32,000 nt of DNA from Serpentinicella alkaliphila (GTDB lineage Bacteria > Bacillota > Clostridia > Peptostreptococcales > Natronincolaceae): positions 3,141,875-3,173,874 of the forward strand of contig NZ_CP058648.1 of the NCBI RefSeq assembly GCF_018141405.1, written 5' to 3'. How positions within the stretch are numbered: position 1 is the stretch's first letter; the number at the start of each line of letters is the position of its first letter. Below, piece after piece: positions 14,248-28,523 of this stretch. The position numbers were made by a program, and so were the translations under genes. The notes under the pieces were generated by a model. That model was not told the DNA's origin. It saw nothing but the letters and a program-made list of their open reading frames with translations, and searched no databases.

Positions 14248-14366
14248 TAGCTAATAATTACCGATAGTTAATATGCCCTTCTCGATGTTATTATTATTTA
14301 AGTTAAATTTATATTACAAATATTAATTTAAATTGTAACAACTAATATTTCCTAAGGAAGGTGCAA

Positions 14367-15839
14367 ATGAGCTCAAATTTTAAATTAAATTTAGTTAACA
14401 AATCAGAAAGGATTTATTTTTTTCTTTCCCTATTAATAAGTATTATTTTATACATCTTTGTTTTCACTTCAATAAATGCTTTTATTATACTTTTTTTAAT
14501 TACTCTATTGTCAGCATTATATATGGCTAATATACGCATTAATGGGGTACGCATTAGTAGTCATCAATTTCCTGCGGTATATGAAAAAACAAAAGAACTA
14601 TGTGAATTAATGGAAATAAAAAAGATACCTGATATATTTGTAATCCAGTCAGGTGGAGTATTAAATGCATTCGCAACTCGTTTTTTTGGTAAAAATATGG
14701 TTGTGCTGTACTCTGAAATTTTTGATCTAATTGACTCTTCAGATGAAAATGTTTTATCATTTATTCTTACCCATGAGCTAGCACATATTAAAAGAAATCA
14801 CATTACTAAACAAGCATTAATACTACCTGCAATGTGGGTTCCTTTTCTAGGAAAAGCATATTCTAGAGCCTGTGAATATACTTGTGACCGTATGGCTGCC
14901 CACTACATCAATGACCCTGAGGCAGCTATGGAAGGGCTAACAATGCTAGCCATTGGGAAGACCTTGTTTAAACAAGTTAATAGAGAAGAGTATTTACATC
15001 AAAGTAGCAACGAAAAGGGGCTATTTACATTTTTTGCAGAAAAGCTTTCTACACACCCAACATTGCCAAAGAGGATTAATAAAATCGAGCTATTCTTTAA
15101 TGGTTCATCAAAAACAGTATTCAAGACTACTCCTAAAGTAGTTATTTCTATTGTTTTACTGTCTATATTAATGTCTACACTAGGTGGAGTAGGTTTCTAC
15201 TATGCTGATGAAATAAAAGAAAGCATAAATACGTTTTTTCCAAACTTCTATTCTAACGACGATTTTATAATTTTAATTGAAGCTGTTGTTGCAGGGGATA
15301 CAGATGAAGTTAAATCTATTTTAGAATCAAGAATTAATCCTGACATCGTAGATTCAGAAGGCTGGACACCACTTATGTGGGCAACTCAGCTTAATGATTT
15401 AGATATGATAAATCTATTTATTGAATATGGGGCTGATCCAAATAAAATAGACTACTATTATGAGGAAACTGCTTTAATAATTGCTCTTACTAATGATTAT
15501 GTTGAAGCTATAGCAGCTTTACTTGAAGCTGGTGCAGATCCAAATCTTTCTGATTCATATGGTTGGACTCCTTTAATGAGTGCAGTTTCAAACGATAATT
15601 CTAAAAATATAAGAATTTTATTAGAAGCTGGAGCTGACCCTAATGTATCAAATATCTATGGCTATACCCCTTTAATGAGTGCATCTTCAAAAGGTAATTT
15701 AGAAGCTGCTAGAGAGTTATTGGAATTTGGTGCTATAACAGATATTAGAGATGATGATAAATTCACAGCATTTTTATATGCAAAAAAATCAAAACACAAT
15801 GACATAGCGGATCTAATAAAGATGTATGAAAAAAACTAA
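14367..15839 (+). CDS. M48-family zinc metallopeptidase fused to C-terminal ankyrin repeats
   Basis: Two N-terminal TM helices, then the HELAH zinc motif (14772-14786) and the STHPTLPKRI C-terminal M48 signature. A further TM helix (VVISIVLLSILMSTLGGVGFYYA) follows, then 5-6 ankyrin repeats (GWTPLMWA...GADPN, GWTPLMSA...GADPN, GYTPLMSA...). I prefer the ATG at 14367 (AAGGAAGG upstream) over the track GTG at 14361. Confidence 0.85.
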   Translation: MSSNFKLNLVNKSERIYFFLSLLISIILYIFVFTSINAFIILFLITLLSALYMANIRINGVRISSHQFPAVYEKTKELCELMEIKKIPDIFVIQSGGVLNAFATRFFGKNMVVLYSEIFDLIDSSDENVLSFILTHELAHIKRNHITKQALILPAMWVPFLGKAYSRACEYTCDRMAAHYINDPEAAMEGLTMLAIGKTLFKQVNREEYLHQSSNEKGLFTFFAEKLSTHPTLPKRINKIELFFNGSSKTVFKTTPKVVISIVLLSILMSTLGGVGFYYADEIKESINTFFPNFYSNDDFIILIEAVVAGDTDEVKSILESRINPDIVDSEGWTPLMWATQLNDLDMINLFIEYGADPNKIDYYYEETALIIALTNDYVEAIAALLEAGADPNLSDSYGWTPLMSAVSNDNSKNIRILLEAGADPNVSNIYGYTPLMSASSKGNLEAARELLEFGAITDIRDDDKFTAFLYAKKSKHNDIADLIKMYEKN

Positions 15840-17088: not shown

Positions 17089-18921
17089 TTAATCTATAAG
17101 TCTCCACAGTTCTCCTTCAATATTAATAATGTCTTCTATTTCCTTATATGGAATTGTAAAGGAAGGCATTCCTATAGCATAAGGTCCAATTTCATATGCT
17201 TGAAAACGAATCTCTAAGCCTTTTTTAGTTAGGAGAAAAAATTGTTCATCCGAAATTTTAGGTTCTGAATCATCAAAGTATATATGGTCTTTTTTGTTTT
17301 GTTCTTGCATCTGACGCTTTATCATTTTCTCTAATCTTGCCTTATAGTTAATATTACTCTTAAACAATGAATCTAAGGTATAAATAGTCCCTGTTTCTAA
17401 ATTCATTGGAAAACTCCTTATCCATCGTATTCCATGAGCTCCACCAATTCCATAATAGTATCCATTTTCTATAATTGTAATAAGCTTTTTAAACTCATTT
17501 ACTTCAAATCGCTTCTCAATTAATTCATAGTAGTCAATCTCATTATTATCATGCCCTTCCTTGCTAATTACAAAAATATTTTTCAATTTTTTACTTATCT
17601 GGCTTTCACGTACATTATCTAAAAGACCTGTTACTTTTGGATAGTATGTTAATTCATATCTATTAGGGCGATATTTTTCTTTTGTTATATAGGCTCCATT
17701 TGTTAAAGTATATTTATATTCGGAATTCCAGATCGTTTCACCTTCATTAGACAAATATATTAATTCATCATCTAATGATATCTTAAACACATCATTATAG
17801 GCTATAATATCTCCTATCCCTGAAAGCTTTGCAAATTTTTTAACTTCCTTATATTTATTGTCAACAATATACGTAAACACTCCATCTGAAATGTATTTTA
17901 AATTTTCTGTAATATTTCCAAATTTAAAATACTTATAATCGCTCAGTAACTTTCCATTTTTATTCATAATGGCCTTTGGTATAAACTCATCCCAAATATA
18001 AAATATATAATTTTTAGATTCACTTACAGCATATAAATCATCACTAATTTTTTGTATATTACCATACATAGGTTTGATAATATACTTTCCATTTTTATTT
18101 ATTAGGCCACTTAAATAACTTTCTGAACCACTGAAAATAGTTACCTGTGCAACTCCATTTTCAAAAGGCCTAGCATCAACAAACTCTGCATCGGTTATCT
18201 TTTTCCCTTCTAAAGTCATATAGCCTTCATTATGAGTATTACTATCCCTATAAATCAATATCTCTTCGCTAATTTCACCAATTATATCTTCATCTATTTT
18301 ACTTAGAAGATTACCTTTATTATCGATTATAGCAAAAGAATTAGCATCTACTTTTACTAATGCTTTTCCATTATTAAAACTCGTTACACTTAAATATTGT
18401 GGAGCTATAGCTACTTTTCCAAGTATATCAACATATCCATACCTCATGTTTTCCCAATTTTCTGAGTCTGAGAATAGGGCAAGACCCTCACTAAAAGCTC
18501 CTATAACACCTTTGTTTTCTAATATTATTTTCCCTTCTTTATTAATAAAGACATAGGAATTTTCTTTATTTTGAGCTACTATAGTTCCCTCATAAATATC
18601 TACAATGTAGTTATACAACGGCTTTACTATATAATCTCCGTATATATCTATAACCCCATATTTATCATTATTCCAAATAATTGCCATTTCATCTCTGTTA
18701 AAATCTCCTACACCATCAAAATGGGGCTTTATAACAAACTCACCACTTTTGTTAATAAACCCCCACTTTTTTATATCTTTTTCATATACAAATGCAGGAT
18801 ATAAATTTGTTTTTTCATTATTTATTTCCTCTACATTATTAGATGTATTTTGTCTAAAGCTACAGCCACCTAATTGAAGCATTAAACTAATAATTACTAA
18901 AATAATATAAAACCTTCTCAT
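17089..18921 (-). CDS. WG-repeat lipoprotein with C-terminal DUF4163/DUF3298 (RsiV/PdaC-like) module
   Basis: The signal MRRFYIILVIISLMLQLGGC carries a lipobox. There are many KWGFINKSGEFVIKP-type WG repeats. The C-terminal roughly 190 aa (...GYYYGIGGAHGIRWIRSF...LEIRFQAYEIGPYAIGMPSFTIPY) resembles the DUF3298 fold family. Confidence 0.8.
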   Translation of the reverse strand: MRRFYIILVIISLMLQLGGCSFRQNTSNNVEEINNEKTNLYPAFVYEKDIKKWGFINKSGEFVIKPHFDGVGDFNRDEMAIIWNNDKYGVIDIYGDYIVKPLYNYIVDIYEGTIVAQNKENSYVFINKEGKIILENKGVIGAFSEGLALFSDSENWENMRYGYVDILGKVAIAPQYLSVTSFNNGKALVKVDANSFAIIDNKGNLLSKIDEDIIGEISEEILIYRDSNTHNEGYMTLEGKKITDAEFVDARPFENGVAQVTIFSGSESYLSGLINKNGKYIIKPMYGNIQKISDDLYAVSESKNYIFYIWDEFIPKAIMNKNGKLLSDYKYFKFGNITENLKYISDGVFTYIVDNKYKEVKKFAKLSGIGDIIAYNDVFKISLDDELIYLSNEGETIWNSEYKYTLTNGAYITKEKYRPNRYELTYYPKVTGLLDNVRESQISKKLKNIFVISKEGHDNNEIDYYELIEKRFEVNEFKKLITIIENGYYYGIGGAHGIRWIRSFPMNLETGTIYTLDSLFKSNINYKARLEKMIKRQMQEQNKKDHIYFDDSEPKISDEQFFLLTKKGLEIRFQAYEIGPYAIGMPSFTIPYKEIEDIINIEGELWRLID

Positions 18922-20221: not shown

Positions 20222-20321
20222 ATTCTTCACCTCAAAAGTTAGTTAATCCTTTAATATTATGTACATAGAAAAATGGTACATACATATTAATTGATATATT
20301 CTAACATAACAATTAACAAAT

Positions 20322-20360
20322 AAAAAAGATTGCAATAAGTGATTTACTCATTACAATCTT
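20322..20360 (-). terminator. Rho-independent terminator of the 867-aa gene
   Basis: On the minus strand, AAGATTGTAATGAG-7 nt-CTTATTGCAATCTT pairs at 12 of 14 positions and is followed by TTTTTAT. Confidence 0.6.
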
Positions 20361-20375
20361 CCATTTGAATCTGTA

Positions 20376-22979
20376 TTAGATTATACCCTGTTCTATACTT
20401 TTATGCTCACATTGACAGGTAAATTTTAATTGCTCTATATTAAAATTTGAGTTTGCAAGAATTTCTGGCCAAATCTTAATAACCTCATATACTTTATTTT
20501 TTTTCTCTTCAGGAAGCATATCCCATGTTACAAATGCTGGGTCAGTTTTATCCTTATAGCTTTTTACTTCACCATAACTCCAACCGGCATCTTTTCTATG
20601 TAAATACCATCTAGTATGCTCGTATTCAGCTAAGCTCTCTAATTCCACTTGGGTAAATTCTTTAACTTGGGGTTTGTCTTTAACGGAGGTTATATCGTAA
20701 TTAATTCTTAATAGTGCCTCTGGAATATGTTTAACCTCATCACGATTACAATCCTTAAGATCCTCGCTTAACTCATGCCAAGGTTTAATAAAGTTTTCAT
20801 CGTAATCTATGTTGTCTTTGTTAAGAGACCTATATTTATCATGAATAGCTATCGCAATACTTTCTATCTTTTCGCTATAGAATGCATCATGCATCATATG
20901 TCTTAAAAATTGCTCTTCATCCACATGTAACTTAAGTTGTTCCCTTGCAGGTAGTAAGGATTGCTCCCACTTCCTAGCTTGAGTTAGCATACTCATTTCT
21001 AAAATGGCTTCCATAGATCTAGACTCATGTTTATATCTTGGGACCTTAAGTAAAGCCCGTAATACTCCATTATCAATTTGCGCTTCTCCATGTTCATTTA
21101 TTAAATGAGGTACTTTTCTTTCTAATAAAGACCTTAATAACATGGCTCTTCTTATAATATATAGTTGATCACCCATCGTATCATCCGTTGGATTAACACC
21201 TAATATATTTACATAACCTCTAAGACGACTTACGAAATCTGGACCCTTAGCAGTTTTGAAATAAGAATTAAATTGTTTTTGATCATTTTCATCTAAAATA
21301 CCTTTTCCACAAAATTCTTTAAAGGTGCTACTGGTACCGCCAGCAAAAACTAGAATTACTTTTCCGATTGAGTGTGTAGCCTCACCTTCTCTAAATACAC
21401 CATCTTGCATAGGAGCTAAAAAGTATTTTAACCAACCTAATTTACCATCAAAGGAGGAATCAAATTCATCTAAAATTACTAGAGGTATTCTACCCTTTAA
21501 AGAATAGTCCCTAACCCTATGGAAGGCATTTATTAAATCCGAAGGAGAGCGGAATTGTGATAAATTATAGTCTAATTTTTTAATTAATTTTGGGGCAATA
21601 CTTGAGGCTATTTCCGTTACTCCAAATGACTTTCCTGAACCTGGAGTACCAAATACTGCAATCGATAAAGGTCTAACTGTATTTTTTGTAGATATGTATT
21701 CCCATATTAAGTTTTTGATAGATCTGTAGCTCTCTATTTCAATTCTGTCTACGGTTTTTAAGTTTCCAAACTGAGCAATTGGTATGAAATTCAGAACCTT
21801 TTCTTCACCATTTTTAACTATATCATAGGCTATTCCAGCTAAATTCGTAGAGCTTTTATCTTTCAGTATATACCAACAGGAAGGACAGTTTATATTAGTA
21901 GAACATGGTATTCTTACATCCTGCACATGTTTCTTCTTAATTATGTTAGATTTATCCTCTATAAAAACAGCGGGATTTGGGAAAGGAGTCTCCTCCACAT
22001 TTTTTCCAAAGCCTTCAATAAAATATTTATGTGCATTTACCATACCCTGACGTATACCATCATTAATGGATATAGCTAAAAGCTCTTTTTTTGCATTATC
22101 TACTACAATACTTTGAGCAAGTCCTGCAACAAAGGATGAAGTAAGTCCATACATTCTACCTTGATTTTCATTTACTAGGCCACCCTCAAACTCGTAAGGA
22201 AGAAAATATAAGCGGGACTCAGTAATTCTATCATTTCTATAATAGATAGCCCCTTCAAGTCCAAATGGAACTACAAGATGGTGACATTTTGCTAGAAAGG
22301 CTAAATTAGGATTATTCTCAATTTGCCATAAAAAATTTTGAGCTGTTTTTTCCCATGAAAGACTTTTACTTATATTTACACCTTTTGATCGTAGATCATC
22401 AGCATTTATAATAACTATAGTATTTTCTAAATGATTACTTTCTAGATGCTTCCATAGATTACTAGATCCGTTAGGGTTATTAAGCTTGTATAAAACTATT
22501 GGGGCTTTTCCTAATGTTTTAATTGCCAAAGGCCAATACTCCACATTTAGATTAAAGCCGTTGTTTTCATCGTCTATAATAACAAGATCAGCATTTTCAT
22601 CATCCTTAATAATTGGAAGGAGCTTTGAGTTTGAAGCAGTAGGCCCAGTAAATCCTAGAAAACGACTTACTCTATATACCTTTTCTTTGCTTCTACCATC
22701 AGTATACTTACTAAAAAGGCTAAGTTCAGCAGTGGATCTAAGAAATTCCCTAGATAAAGTCTGTTCAATGTCATCAATTTTTGGAGAAAGGACACAGGCT
22801 CCAGTTGATAAGGACACTAGTTCAGAAAGTAGTAAAGACTCCCCTGGTTTTAAGATGCTATGCATATTTAAATGTGTTTGCCAATTAAAACCTTCACTGT
22901 TCTGTGGATATGTTATCCATTGAAGTGAATTAATACAAATATCCCCTGTTACTACAATTTTGATATCTTTGCTATCCAT
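20376..22979 (-). CDS. Large multidomain protein: N-terminal about 340-aa domain (ribokinase/PfkB-like?), AAA+ ATPase core, two C-terminal RyR-type repeats
   Basis: Walker A GTPGSGKS (aa 444-451; nt 21627-21650) and Walker B PLVILDEFD (aa 499-507). A MoxR-like segment reads FLAPMQDGVFREGEATHSIGKVILVFAGGT. The RyR repeats read IAIAIHDKY...PWHELSEDLKDCNRDEVKHIP and LAEYEHTRWYLHRKDAGWSYGE...DPAFVTWDMLPEEKKNKVYEVI. SD AGGAGG lies 7 nt before the ATG. Confidence 0.85.
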   Translation of the reverse strand: MDSKDIKIVVTGDICINSLQWITYPQNSEGFNWQTHLNMHSILKPGESLLLSELVSLSTGACVLSPKIDDIEQTLSREFLRSTAELSLFSKYTDGRSKEKVYRVSRFLGFTGPTASNSKLLPIIKDDENADLVIIDDENNGFNLNVEYWPLAIKTLGKAPIVLYKLNNPNGSSNLWKHLESNHLENTIVIINADDLRSKGVNISKSLSWEKTAQNFLWQIENNPNLAFLAKCHHLVVPFGLEGAIYYRNDRITESRLYFLPYEFEGGLVNENQGRMYGLTSSFVAGLAQSIVVDNAKKELLAISINDGIRQGMVNAHKYFIEGFGKNVEETPFPNPAVFIEDKSNIIKKKHVQDVRIPCSTNINCPSCWYILKDKSSTNLAGIAYDIVKNGEEKVLNFIPIAQFGNLKTVDRIEIESYRSIKNLIWEYISTKNTVRPLSIAVFGTPGSGKSFGVTEIASSIAPKLIKKLDYNLSQFRSPSDLINAFHRVRDYSLKGRIPLVILDEFDSSFDGKLGWLKYFLAPMQDGVFREGEATHSIGKVILVFAGGTSSTFKEFCGKGILDENDQKQFNSYFKTAKGPDFVSRLRGYVNILGVNPTDDTMGDQLYIIRRAMLLRSLLERKVPHLINEHGEAQIDNGVLRALLKVPRYKHESRSMEAILEMSMLTQARKWEQSLLPAREQLKLHVDEEQFLRHMMHDAFYSEKIESIAIAIHDKYRSLNKDNIDYDENFIKPWHELSEDLKDCNRDEVKHIPEALLRINYDITSVKDKPQVKEFTQVELESLAEYEHTRWYLHRKDAGWSYGEVKSYKDKTDPAFVTWDMLPEEKKNKVYEVIKIWPEILANSNFNIEQLKFTCQCEHKSIEQGII

Positions 22980-23011
22980 ATCAGCACCTCCTATTTATGT
23001 ATATTTAACTG

Positions 23012-23040
23012 ATTTTAATGTAAAGTTTATGGAATGTCAA
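23012..23040 (-). promoter_or_regulatory. Sigma-A-type promoter of the 867-aa gene
   Basis: On the minus strand, TTGACA (23040-23035), an exact 17-nt spacer, then TAAAAT (23017-23012). This sits about 30 nt upstream of the ATG. Confidence 0.55.
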
Positions 23041-23184: not shown

Positions 23185-23226
23185 AAAAAATAAACCCAGT
23201 AGAGTTATAACTTTTTTCTCTTCTGG
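23185..23226 (-). terminator. Probable terminator ending the tetrapyrrole operon after hemB
   Basis: On the minus strand, CCAGAAGAG-13 nt-CTCTACTGG (one central mismatch) is followed by GTTTATTTTTT. Confidence 0.45.
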
Positions 23227-23243
23227 ATTCATATATTTTTTTG

Positions 23244-27243: not shown

Positions 27244-28523
27244 TTATATAATGTTACTCATTACTTTGTCCGCGGCTTCTATTGTCCTAGCTATATCTTC
27301 CTCTGTATGAGCATAGGATATGAACATAGCTTCAAACTGAGATGGTGACATATATATACCCTGTTCTAGCATACCTGTAAAAAATTCCACATATAAATTC
27401 GTATTACTGCTCATTGCACTTTCGAAATCTACTACCTCTTTATCCGTAAAGAAAGTTGTAAGCATTGAACCAACCCTATTAACCACTGCTTGAATATTAT
27501 ACTTTTTAGCAATGTCCCTGAAGCCAGTCTCTAACATTAGCCCAAGTCTATCAATATGCTCGTATATTTCGGGTTTACTCTTTAAAATACTCAATGTAGT
27601 TATTCCCGCTGACATTGCCAATGGGTTCCCAGAAAGAGTTCCAGCCTGATATATAGGTCCTGCAGGTGAAATTTGCTCCATTATTTCTCATAGGCTCCCA
27701 CTGGTAAGCCACCCCCTATAATTTTACCGAAGCAAGTTATATCAGGTTCAATACCATACACGCTCTGAGCGCCACCATATGCCACTCTAAAACCAGTCAT
27801 AACCTCATCTATTATTAGCAGTGCCCCATACTCTTTAGTTATACTTCTAAGGTATTCCATAAAATCTTTACGGGCAGCTACCACTCCCATATTGCCAGCT
27901 ATTGGTTCTATTATTACTGCAGCAATGTCTTTACCATATTCACTAAATATGTCTTTAATACTTTGCGTATCGTTATACCTTGCGGTTAGTGTGTTTTTAC
28001 TTACGTCAGCTGTAACTCCAGGACTGTCAGGTACTCCATGAGTTAATGCTCCGGATCCTGCCTTTACAAGTAAACTGTCCGTATGTCCATGATAGTTACC
28101 ACTAAATTTAACAATTTTATTTCTTCCTGTAAACCCTCTAGCAAGTCTTAGGGCACTCATAACTGCCTCTGTTCCTGAGTTTACCATTCTTACCATATCA
28201 ACTGAAGAAACTGCCTCACATATAAGTTTTGCCATTTCCAGTTCTTTCAAAGTTGGTGCTCCATAGGTTGTTCCTTTTCTTGCAGCCTCCGTTATTGAAT
28301 TAATAACCTGTTCATTTCCATGGCCAAGTATAAGTGGACCCCAGGAGCCTATATAATCAATATATTCCTTTTCATCTTCGTCGATAATGTGACTTCCTTT
28401 TCCTTCTTTTATAAAGGGTGGGGTTACAGTTGTTCCCCTAAAAGCTCTTACAGGGCTATTTACTCCACCAGGTATGAACTTTTTACTCTCCTCAAATAAT
28501 TTAACAGAATTACTACCTACCAT
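27244..28523 (-). pseudogene. hemL: Glutamate-1-semialdehyde 2,1-aminomutase (hemL) split into 280-aa and 145-aa ORFs at a TAATG overlap
   Basis: ORF1 ends ...[17 protein letters not shown]-stop (PLP lysine present). ORF2 begins MEQISPAGPIYQAGTLSGNPLAMSAG. The usual GG(K/R)x between GAY and EIM is missing, and the frames differ. The frame-overlap window is 27687-27690. Confidence 0.85.

Follow-up and report, generated by a model that had tools for sequence, protein, structure and literature searches.

The 32,000-nucleotide stretch of the Serpentinicella alkaliphila contig NZ_CP058648.1 between positions 3,141,875 and 3,173,874 (hereafter the window) carries a gene encoding an 867-amino-acid (aa) protein, in which a domain with the ribokinase/PfkB fold, an AAA+ ATPase and a ryanodine receptor (RyR) domain of the Repeat12 (R12) type are joined in one chain. 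We found that this gene is an orphan, strongly conserved derivative of a large prokaryotic family of which we found no description in the literature. Distant members of the family stand beside genes for NAD+ hydrolases (NADases) and other proteins of the kind used in immune signalling, so that the closest functional analogies of the family appear to be the nucleotide-signal receptors of TIR/NADase immunity. The window gene itself is not a classical defence-island gene. The three-module layout had been outlined in an original prediction made from the letters of the window, and it was followed up here by profile searches, structure modelling and comparison of gene neighbourhoods. The positions of all features are listed in Table 1.

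The original prediction had recognised the combination of domains as no named system, and our searches agree with it. When the window protein was compared with NCBIfam and PADLOC-DB v2, no family was returned, the only PADLOC match being a P-loop-level one to mad8 (E = 0.044). No literature description of a cellular PfkB-AAA-RyR protein or of a linkage of RyR with SLATT or DUF4062 was found, and the comparative-genomics literature on SMODS, SLOG and SLATT systems that we examined does not mention cellular RyR multidomain proteins. Homologues are nevertheless numerous. A total of 936 were found, of which the top 120 are full-length and 64-97% identical to the window protein. The close homologues, hundreds of proteins of about 850-870 aa with 58-97% identity, are annotated merely as 'RyR domain-containing protein' and come from Clostridium, Oxobacter, Negativicutes, Peptococcaceae, Lachnospiraceae, Bacillaceae and Paenibacillaceae; we refer to this Bacillota group as the window clade. 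A profile search of 1.84 billion representative sequences enlarged the family to 1,754 clusters at 50% identity. The PfkB-like/AAA+/RyR triad, with its RyR domain, is kept in 51 of 55 distant representatives at 34-42% identity; it is ancient and fixed in the family. Rare members bear an additional C-terminal domain, either TIR_2 (P0177) or NUDIX (P0170); TIR and NUDIX domains both act on NAD+ or ADP-ribose (ADPR).

A genome scan with clade-specific peptide patterns, which is not an estimate of prevalence, yielded 162 stretches from about 185k species genomes. The named hosts of the window clade are nearly all endospore-forming Bacillota, among them Sporomusa, Pelosinus and Dendrosporobacter, which are sporulating Negativicutes. 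Two diverged copies per genome are present in Clostridium magnum (L014 and L020) and in Clostridium sp. DJ247 (P0009 and P0040). A match in a metagenome-assembled genome labelled 'Patescibacteria' (L061) looks like bin contamination. An origin from phages or plasmids was considered and rejected, since the matches amounted to a single weak one in phages (tblastn), two weak ones in viral contigs and hits in 3 of 72,556 plasmids. A separate observation concerns a family member of 1,002 aa (P0219, L087 8001..11009) in which no RyR domain is detectable and which lies among integrase, transposase and DUF1699 genes; this locus may be a mobile element in an archaeal-like context.

The N-terminal domain was recognised by its predicted structure. 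Residues 1-350 gave no match to the PfkB profile hidden Markov model (HMM; PF00294) even at E<=10, Pfam, NCBIfam and PADLOC were all blank for this domain, and sequence searches of the PDB, with the single sequence as well as with a profile, returned only RyR matches. A first full-length AlphaFold2 (AF2) model, built on a shallow alignment of 39 sequences at 64-85% identity, had a predicted local distance difference test score (pLDDT) of 65, with 30-55 in the AAA region, and its N-terminal domain gave only a weak hint of pyridoxal kinase in Foldseek. After the profile search had supplied distant relatives, the domain was remodelled with the diverse alignment, and a model with a pLDDT of 92 and a predicted template modelling (TM) score of 0.92 was obtained. 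Foldseek found 188 PDB matches with E<1e-3 for this model; the top 50 are all PfkB kinases, with TM scores of 0.45-0.57 over about 350 columns, and the nearest are HldA, ketohexokinase, the archaeal (Methanocaldococcus jannaschii) nucleoside kinase and ribokinases. Like these kinases and RbsK, the domain has the two-lobed alpha/beta fold with a beta-sheet lid, and its G46(-G47) corresponds to their GG motif. Unlike them, it has no DTxGAGD segment, carries D..R in place of NxxE, matches no PfkB HMM and is fused to an AAA+ module.

To map the catalytic positions, the family profile was aligned with Escherichia coli RbsK, YeiI, PsuK and FruK. The hhalign probability was 3.6%, with an alignment that runs collinearly and matches the predicted secondary structure in register. 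In this weak alignment, ribokinase D16 falls on position 17, G41-G42 on G46-G47, N187/E190 of the NxxE motif on D194/R197 (D194-D-L-R197), and G252-A-G-D255 of the DTxGAGD segment on G278-L-T-S281. R197 is found in all 55 diverse members, and position 281, where the catalytic Asp would be expected, is S in 25, T in 7, N in 5 or A in 5 of them and Asp in none. The canonical PfkB phosphotransfer apparatus, that is the catalytic Asp, the GAGD anion hole and NxxE, is thus predicted to be absent. The original prediction had seen here a ribokinase/PfkB-like domain without obvious catalytic motifs, and both parts of that description are borne out. The cleft does not look decayed. D13, D137, R197, S208, W209 and E265 are invariant in the 55 members, R103 (52 of 55) and K165 (53 of 55) are nearly so, and D136 and E210 belong to the same group; position 17, the equivalent of the ribose-binding Asp, is D in 53 of the 55, and the equivalent of the GG motif is also kept in the wider family. 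Such an invariant polar cleft suggests that the domain has retained some function, and we predict a ligand-binding or a non-canonical catalytic site. The window clade has fixed changes of its own in this cleft: D17N, G47E, A138E, G139N, R143N/H and R168N.

The central module scored just below the thresholds of the profile collections. The window protein reached 19.1-21.1 bits against PF00004 (AAA; cut-off 21.2) and 17.6-20.2 bits against bpMoxR (cut-off 27), and 35 of 55 distant members matched PF00004 at E<1e-3. The Walker A motif G-x-PGSGKS and D504-E505 of Walker B are invariant in all 55 diverse members, which is in line with the intact AAA+ core of the original prediction. Further AAA+ motifs are invariant or nearly so in these relatives, namely FAGGT with the sensor-1 residue T549, SRLRG (R585, R587), R610-R611 and ES-R654-S655, and a pre-sensor-1 hairpin, MQDGVF..G...H.IGK, is present. 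The region aligned by hhalign with E. coli RavA at a probability of 73% (E = 3e-5), from Walker A through the pre-sensor-1 hairpin to sensor-1, and in the PDB the AAA profile found only matches with E>=0.08 (Rubisco activase, Vps4, Rpt1). The proposed MoxR-like helix-2 insert was upheld in part: the affinity to MoxR stands, but RavA has a helix-2 region longer by about 10 residues, and a full insert is not evident in the window protein. On these alignments 'MoxR-like' appears a reasonable label for the module. Compared with MoxR ATPases such as RavA and the bpMoxR of the MoxR-vWA-beta-propeller ternary systems, it conserves the Arg-finger-like SRLRG and the sensor-2-like ESRS; it departs from them in having no VWA partner gene, a shorter helix-2 insert and scores under the Pfam thresholds. 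We know of no MoxR protein with PfkB-like and RyR flanking domains.

Within the window clade, the AAA+ module is the best conserved part of the protein (mean 79% identity to the window protein) and the RyR domain the least conserved (57%). In the linker between the PfkB-like domain and the AAA+ module, W369, which is invariant, is the sole position conserved across the family. The 'Cys-rich linker' of the original prediction shrank to one pair, C365-x-x-C368, which is present in about 30 of 39 close homologues, is gone in distant members and is thus conserved within the Bacillota clade only; a Zn site was rejected because the cysteines are not conserved.

The C-terminal domain is the part of the protein with a clear sequence assignment. 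PF02026 (RyR) matched aa 780-848 with E = 1.5e-11 and 44.8 bits, against a gathering score of 27.4. With the isolated C-terminal fragment the match rose to E = 1.6e-13 and covered two stretches, the first repeat alone being weak (E = 0.015). The sequence search of the PDB returned solely the ryanodine receptors RyR1-3, with E values down to 1.6e-10, and Foldseek aligned the full-length model with the whole R12 of human RyR3 in complex with ADP, ATP or AMP-PCP (E ~3e-6, about 185 columns), across both repeats. These results establish the tandem arrangement of RyR repeats that had been proposed by analogy with the eukaryotic receptors. The R12 of the animal receptor is the best structural match and has the same pseudo-dimer arrangement of tandem repeats; the window protein differs from it in lacking a channel and the other RyR domains and in having only about 20% identity.

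Ligands of RyR domains have been reported for phage proteins. The phage protein RyDEP (PF02026) binds and cleaves 2'/3' cyclic ADPR (2'/3'cADPR) with the ligand residues H75, W78, H100 and D117, of which H75/D117 form the catalytic dyad, and other phage RyDEP homologues are nanomolar sponges (Lopez Rivera et al. 2026, PMC13232231). RyR Tad binds glycocyclic ADPR (gcADPR) and cyclic ADPR (cADPR) through H129/W132, K147/H154 and K170/D171, and human R12 binds ATP and ADP, as seen in structures with ligand (10.64898/2026.06.04.730250). In our family these ligand residues fall on repeat 2, at H788-x-x-W791, position 813 (+25) and positions 829/830 (+41/42). Among 53 distant members, H788 is present in 49, W791 in 39 (with Y or F in a further 11), H813 in 25, D830 in 44 and R831 in 37. 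In the window clade the pocket has a different make-up: of 39 members, 38 have H788 and 34 have W791, whereas 30 have Asp at 813, 36 have V, I, L or A at 830 and 29 have Tyr at 831. The window protein accordingly keeps H788 and W791 and shows H813D, D830V and R831Y. The His75/Asp117 glycosidase dyad of RyDEP is not kept, since a Val (V830) occupies the position of Asp117, and the clade as a whole has V, I, L or A there.

The window protein thus shares with RyDEP of mycobacteriophage DyoEdafos and RyR Tad of Pectobacterium phage CB1 (gp68) the PF02026 domain, the R12 fold and the HxxW motif (H788, W791), and the wider cellular family also shares with them the His(+25) and K-D(+41/42) ligand residues. 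A common function in binding ADPR-type or adenine nucleotides is likely. The phage proteins, however, are homodimeric counter-defence sponges or glycosidases of about 100-180 aa, whereas in the window protein two repeats in one chain form the end of an 867-aa cellular ATPase, with Val (V830) where the phage proteins have the catalytic or ligand Asp and Asp (D813) where they have the His, and tblastn against phages gave one weak match only.

We compared the neighbourhoods of 81 loci of the window clade, with flanks of ±8 kb and neighbouring open reading frames (ORFs) from a simple home-made caller. No conserved neighbour or operon partner was found in these loci; those that recur are of generic types (ABC ATPase, MCP, HxlR, azoreductase, two-component genes), and the intergenic gaps have medians of 222 bp on the upstream and 172 bp on the downstream side. 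The Pfam content of the neighbours is that of ordinary metabolism and signalling, without mobile-element genes near the loci and without the VWA partner typical of MoxR, and no TIR or TIR-like NADase gene was linked to the family gene within these flanks. At most 2 of 150 immediate neighbours matched any PADLOC family, and those were of a generic SMC/ABC type, so that there is no PADLOC enrichment. The original prediction had proposed looking for enrichment of homologues near defence islands, prophages or ion-transport genes, and for the window clade no enrichment of defence genes was seen. When all 80 ORFs of the partner families described below were used as phmmer queries on the 1,205 ORFs from the Bacillota loci, the family gene alone was returned; the window clade is a true orphan.

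The distant clades present another picture. In spot checks, a TIR_2 gene was found upstream of the NUDIX-fused member (P0170), and downstream there is a RelA_SpoT/TPR/RyR gene. A stand-alone RyR gene lies upstream of the TIR_2-fused member (P0177), a divergent DUF4062-STAND gene accompanies P0224, and three genes of NADase type, TIR_2, CAP12-PCTIR_TIR and DUF4062, follow P0184. On plasmid pA of Methylobacterium sp. FF17, a 2,082-aa 'SIR2 family protein' (L180 1029..7277) is encoded near a family member, with a transposase and a helix-turn-helix gene between them. The RelA_SpoT/TPR/RyR gene directly downstream of the NUDIX-fused member (L081 7393..10350, + strand) deserves a remark of its own: it encodes 985 aa with a weak RelA_SpoT match, TPR and RyR, and is a third RyR architecture linked to enzymes of nucleotide signals.

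As a guard against selection bias, a metagenome scan was seeded on a member whose context had not been seen beforehand (P0127), and the neighbouring ORFs of the best 80 of 171 confirmed hits were clustered. Among these best 80, partner genes of two recurrent families were found in 47 of 74 informative loci. The family named C1 (27 loci) consists of DUF4062-NACHT-WD40/TPR proteins resembling nucleotide-binding leucine-rich repeat (NLR) proteins; 40 of its ORFs contained DUF4062 in 16, NACHT in 17, WD40 in 14 and TPR_12 in 16 cases. The family named c0 (35 loci) comprises two types, TrkA_N...RyR proteins and proteins that begin with a domain of about 280 aa, not assigned to a family, and continue with two-transmembrane modules of the DUF4231/SLATT_3 and SLATT_1 families; in 40 of its ORFs, RyR occurred 13, SLATT_1 8 and TrkA_N 7 times. 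Partners make up 43 of the 116 immediate neighbours (37%). Thirty of these 43 share the strand of the family gene, and the median gap is 18.5 bp for c0 and 55.5 bp for C1. The linkage to partners in the distant clades is operon-like, and the short gaps on the same strand argue for operons over mere clustering in defence islands.

Two of the partner types may be described further. SLATT partners of about 530-585 aa are encoded at L102:5168-6922(-), L099:5811-7394(+), L105:10850-12520(+), L121:6425-8149(-) and L141:7398-9113(-), and their N-terminal domain, with the consensus IGxxGHR...WDGxxxxGxGGT, has the look of a candidate SLOG/LOG-like domain. Partners of 600-800 aa that join TrkA_N (Rossmann) to a C-terminal RyR are found at L102:3375-5168(-), L130:9729-11915(+), L108:3398-5413(-) and L109:1043-3439(+).

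These arrangements recall two kinds of known systems. As with the ThsA-type effectors of Thoeris, which join a signal-sensing domain to an effector and are activated by TIR-made gcADPR or His-ADPR, the distant clades encode a nucleotide-pocket domain beside NAD+-consuming TIR, TIR-like or SIR2 proteins and SLATT membrane effectors. They differ from Thoeris in that RyR takes the place of SLOG or Macro as the sensor, an AAA+ motor is inserted and the NADase partner is an NLR-like DUF4062-NACHT-repeat protein, not ThsB; the window clade, moreover, has no partner, and the family is not detected by PADLOC. With Avs and the NLR-like STAND single-gene defence proteins the window protein shares a tripartite, single-gene layout with a central NTPase, but that NTPase is AAA+ (MoxR-like) and not STAND/NACHT, and in the distant clades the NLR-like proteins are separate neighbours. 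The original prediction had likened the gene to single-gene conflict or signalling NTPases. This finds support in the linkage of distant relatives to NADase-NLR, RyR and SLATT genes, although those are multi-gene cassettes; the window clade lends it no such support, as none of the 81 loci has such a context and the conservation is unusually high for a conflict gene.

We tentatively favour, at a little under an even chance, the reading that the window protein is a stand-alone ligand-gated AAA+ switch, an orphan descendant of an NADase-linked signalling module, each mechanistic step of which we infer from sequence comparison. In the distant-clade systems, the RyR pocket would receive an NAD+-derived nucleotide from the NADase partner. 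Binding of the nucleotide would switch the AAA+ module, through assembly or through ATP turnover, and the AAA+ module would in turn control the PfkB-like domain, whether that domain delivers the output or offers a second site for a nucleotide. On this reading the window clade has lost all partners, and it carries fixed substitutions in both pockets; from this remodelling of the PfkB-like and RyR pockets together we infer a change of ligand, and the window protein most likely responds to a different one, possibly an endogenous adenine nucleotide. The window protein would act alone, from a constitutively transcribed chromosomal gene.

Several points weigh against this reading. The conservation of 58-85% across classes of Bacillota suits a housekeeping role at least equally. 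Of the four ligand residues of RyR, two are missing from the window clade (D813 and V830 stand in their places), and its RyR domain may bind no nucleotide. The mapping of the PfkB catalytic positions comes from the weak hhalign result and the secondary-structure register, not from a superposition in three dimensions, and the AAA+ region was modelled poorly (pLDDT 30-55). DUF4062 is reported as a TIR-like NADase of antiphage defence that converts NAD+ to ADPR and nicotinamide; the reports so far describe an NAD+ hydrolase and not a dedicated signal synthase. The 'signal' could then be mere depletion of NAD+, and the co-location in the distant clades could partly reflect clustering in defence islands.

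A wider and more speculative proposal, which we regard as somewhat unlikely but worth stating, is that prokaryotes possess a widespread, undescribed immune-signalling pathway in which RyR/Repeat12 domains serve as the cellular receptors. NLR-like DUF4062, TIR or SIR2 NADases would make an ADPR-type nucleotide, which would be read by RyR proteins (PfkB-AAA-RyR and TrkA_N-RyR) with SLATT pore effectors alongside, and the Bacillota clade would have been domesticated to sense an endogenous nucleotide. In this pathway the PfkB-like/AAA+ protein would process the signal, or act as an effector, driven by ATP. If true, the pathway would explain the RyR sponges and glycosidases of phages and the origin of the nucleotide site of animal RyR.

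The conservation pattern also fits a protein with no link to immunity in the window clade, namely a MoxR ATPase with a housekeeping task, regulatory or chaperone-like, in endospore-forming Firmicutes. Its RyR domain would read the ATP/ADP (energy) state, as has been proposed for the R12 site of animals, while the AAA+ module remodels or matures a client and the PfkB-like domain docks the client or a cofactor. We consider this unlikely. It would account for the full-length identity of 58-85% from Clostridium to Negativicutes, Peptococcaceae and Bacillaceae, which drops roughly with taxonomic distance, for the ordinary metabolic and signalling neighbours without PADLOC enrichment, for the native GC content and the rarity on plasmids and viral contigs, and for the sigma-70-type promoter, the spore-forming habit of nearly all named hosts and the binding of ATP and ADP by human R12. 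It accords less well with the patchy occurrence in the scan of about 185k species genomes, which gave only 162 stretches (though the scan patterns were clade-specific), with the two copies in genomes such as C. magnum and Clostridium sp. DJ247, with the lack of a conserved partner or client gene and of the VWA partner typical of MoxR, and with a wider family that is clearly conflict-associated.

That wider association could be carried over to the window gene itself, as an autonomous single-gene anti-phage or abortive-infection NTPase that would sense a phage cue, or a TIR-made signal from elsewhere in the genome, oligomerise through AAA+ and act through the PfkB-like domain as a toxic effector. 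The monocistronic layout of sensor, NTPase and extra domain agrees with this, as do the linkage of the family to TIR, DUF4062, SIR2, NACHT and SLATT, the TIR or NUDIX fusions, the occurrence of paralogues in some genomes and a copy on one plasmid. We nevertheless hold it to be quite improbable: the 81 loci show no defence-island context, mobile-element genes are absent nearby, the protein itself has no PADLOC match, the sequence is very strongly conserved, the RyR pocket has lost its His and Asp ligand residues, and the PfkB-like domain displays no recognisable toxic chemistry. A similarly doubtful alternative concerns the N-terminal domain, which might be a genuine small-molecule kinase, another phosphotransferase or a hydrolase whose substrate is a metabolite that contains ribose (such as ADPR, a nucleoside or an NAD-derived ribose), with D13, D137, R197 and E265 as a non-canonical catalytic set and with AAA+ and RyR as allosteric regulators. 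The undegenerate cleft, with its six residues invariant in 55 of 55, R103 in 52 and K165 in 53, would suit such an enzyme, and so would the equivalents of the ribose-binding Asp and the GG motif kept in the wider family, the nucleoside, heptose and ribokinases among the closest folds, the NUDIX fusion and the literature links to NARP-like ADPR chemistry. Catalysis of this kind is hard to reconcile with a position 281 that is S, T, N or A instead of the catalytic base Asp, with the missing GAGD, with the replacement of the Mg-binding Glu by Arg, with the complete lack of PfkB HMM signal, and with the further loss of D17, R143 and R168 in the window clade.

Table 1. Features of the gene for the PfkB-like/AAA+/RyR protein and its flanks; positions are those of the window
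Feature	Position	Strand	Evidence
Coding sequence, 867-aa PfkB-like/AAA+/RyR protein	20376..22979 (including stop codon)	minus	ORF list
Sigma-70-like promoter, putative: -35 TTGACA 23040..23035, 17-nt spacer, -10 TAAAAT 23017..23012	23012..23040	minus	consensus scan, 11/12 matches
Ribosome-binding site AGGAGG, 7 nt 5' of ATG	22987..22992	minus	sequence reading
Ribokinase/PfkB-fold domain, aa 1-345	21945..22979	minus	AF2 model and Foldseek
Linker and pre-AAA helices, aa 346-430	21690..21944	minus	residue frequencies
AAA+ ATPase (MoxR-like core and lid), aa 431-700	20880..21689	minus	sub-threshold Pfam, motifs, hhalign
Walker A GTPGSGKS, aa 444-451	21627..21650	minus	motif reading
Walker B LVILDEFD, aa 500-507	21459..21482	minus	motif reading
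RyR Repeat12-type domain, aa 701-850; two tandem repeats, ~701-775 and ~776-850	20430..20879	minus	Pfam, PDB search, Foldseek
Intrinsic terminator: 17-bp hairpin 20362..20324, then U-run	20312..20362	minus	scan and RNA fold
Terminator-like hairpin (about 23232..23190) and U-run closing the upstream hem operon (after hemB)	23190..23232	minus	RNA fold

The gene is a single stand-alone ORF, as had been predicted, and its strand, which the original prediction did not give, is now assigned as minus. It lies where it had been placed, between the end of a heme/corrin operon and an amidohydrolase gene: the Pfam scan identified hemA, a split hemL, NAD_binding_7 (CysG-N-like), hemC, cobA-hemD and hemB (ALAD) upstream and Amidohydro_1 downstream. 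Of the private promoter and terminator also predicted, the terminator was confirmed by folding. Its hairpin begins 14 nt past the stop codon in the scan, and as RNA it has a folding energy of -20.4 kcal/mol (z = -5.97), a stability that none of 200 shuffled sequences reached. The promoter is located as claimed, but it is plausible rather than proven, because hexamers of this kind are no rarer than chance in AT-rich DNA (12 observed against 14.8 expected). The hairpin at the end of hemB (-14.4 kcal/mol, z = -2.8), followed by its own U-run, supports a separate transcription unit for the RyR gene, and the best reading of these signals is that the gene would form a self-contained transcription unit. 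The 264-bp leader contains no riboswitch or other Rfam element; the sole match is a sub-threshold chance one to a microRNA, which marks the hemB terminator hairpin. Recent horizontal transfer of the gene was rejected on composition, as its GC content of 0.31-0.34 is like that of the flanks. An antisense ORF of 145 aa inside the gene (22486..22923, + strand) is of low complexity and almost certainly spurious.

Some other genes of the window are worth recording. In the hem operon, hemL (glutamate-1-semialdehyde aminomutase, Aminotran_3; 27244..28523, - strand) is broken into two abutting ORFs, 27681..28523 (280 aa, profile positions 8-269 of 403) and 27244..27681 (145 aa), by a frameshift, as a pseudogene or through a sequencing error. 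A 492-aa protein encoded at 14361..15839 (+ strand) combines Peptidase_M48 with C-terminal ankyrin repeats, an architecture unusual in bacteria, and a predicted lipoprotein of 610 aa with WG_beta_rep repeats and DUF3298 is encoded at 17089..18921 (- strand).

To our knowledge, the RyR Repeat12 fold had until 2026 no biochemical role beyond the binding of drugs and ATP in animal channels. The window gene encodes an uncharacterised, probably nucleotide-sensing ATPase and is not a demonstrable defence gene. The large prokaryotic family to which it belongs, with about 1,750 clusters, supplies a cellular side to the RyR-domain biology of two 2026 preprints, in which phage proteins were shown to bind or cleave cADPR signals made by TIR proteins. 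It raises for testing whether RyR domains serve as receptors of immune signals, what job a kinase-dead PfkB fold may have, and how a conflict module may have turned into a conserved chromosomal gene.

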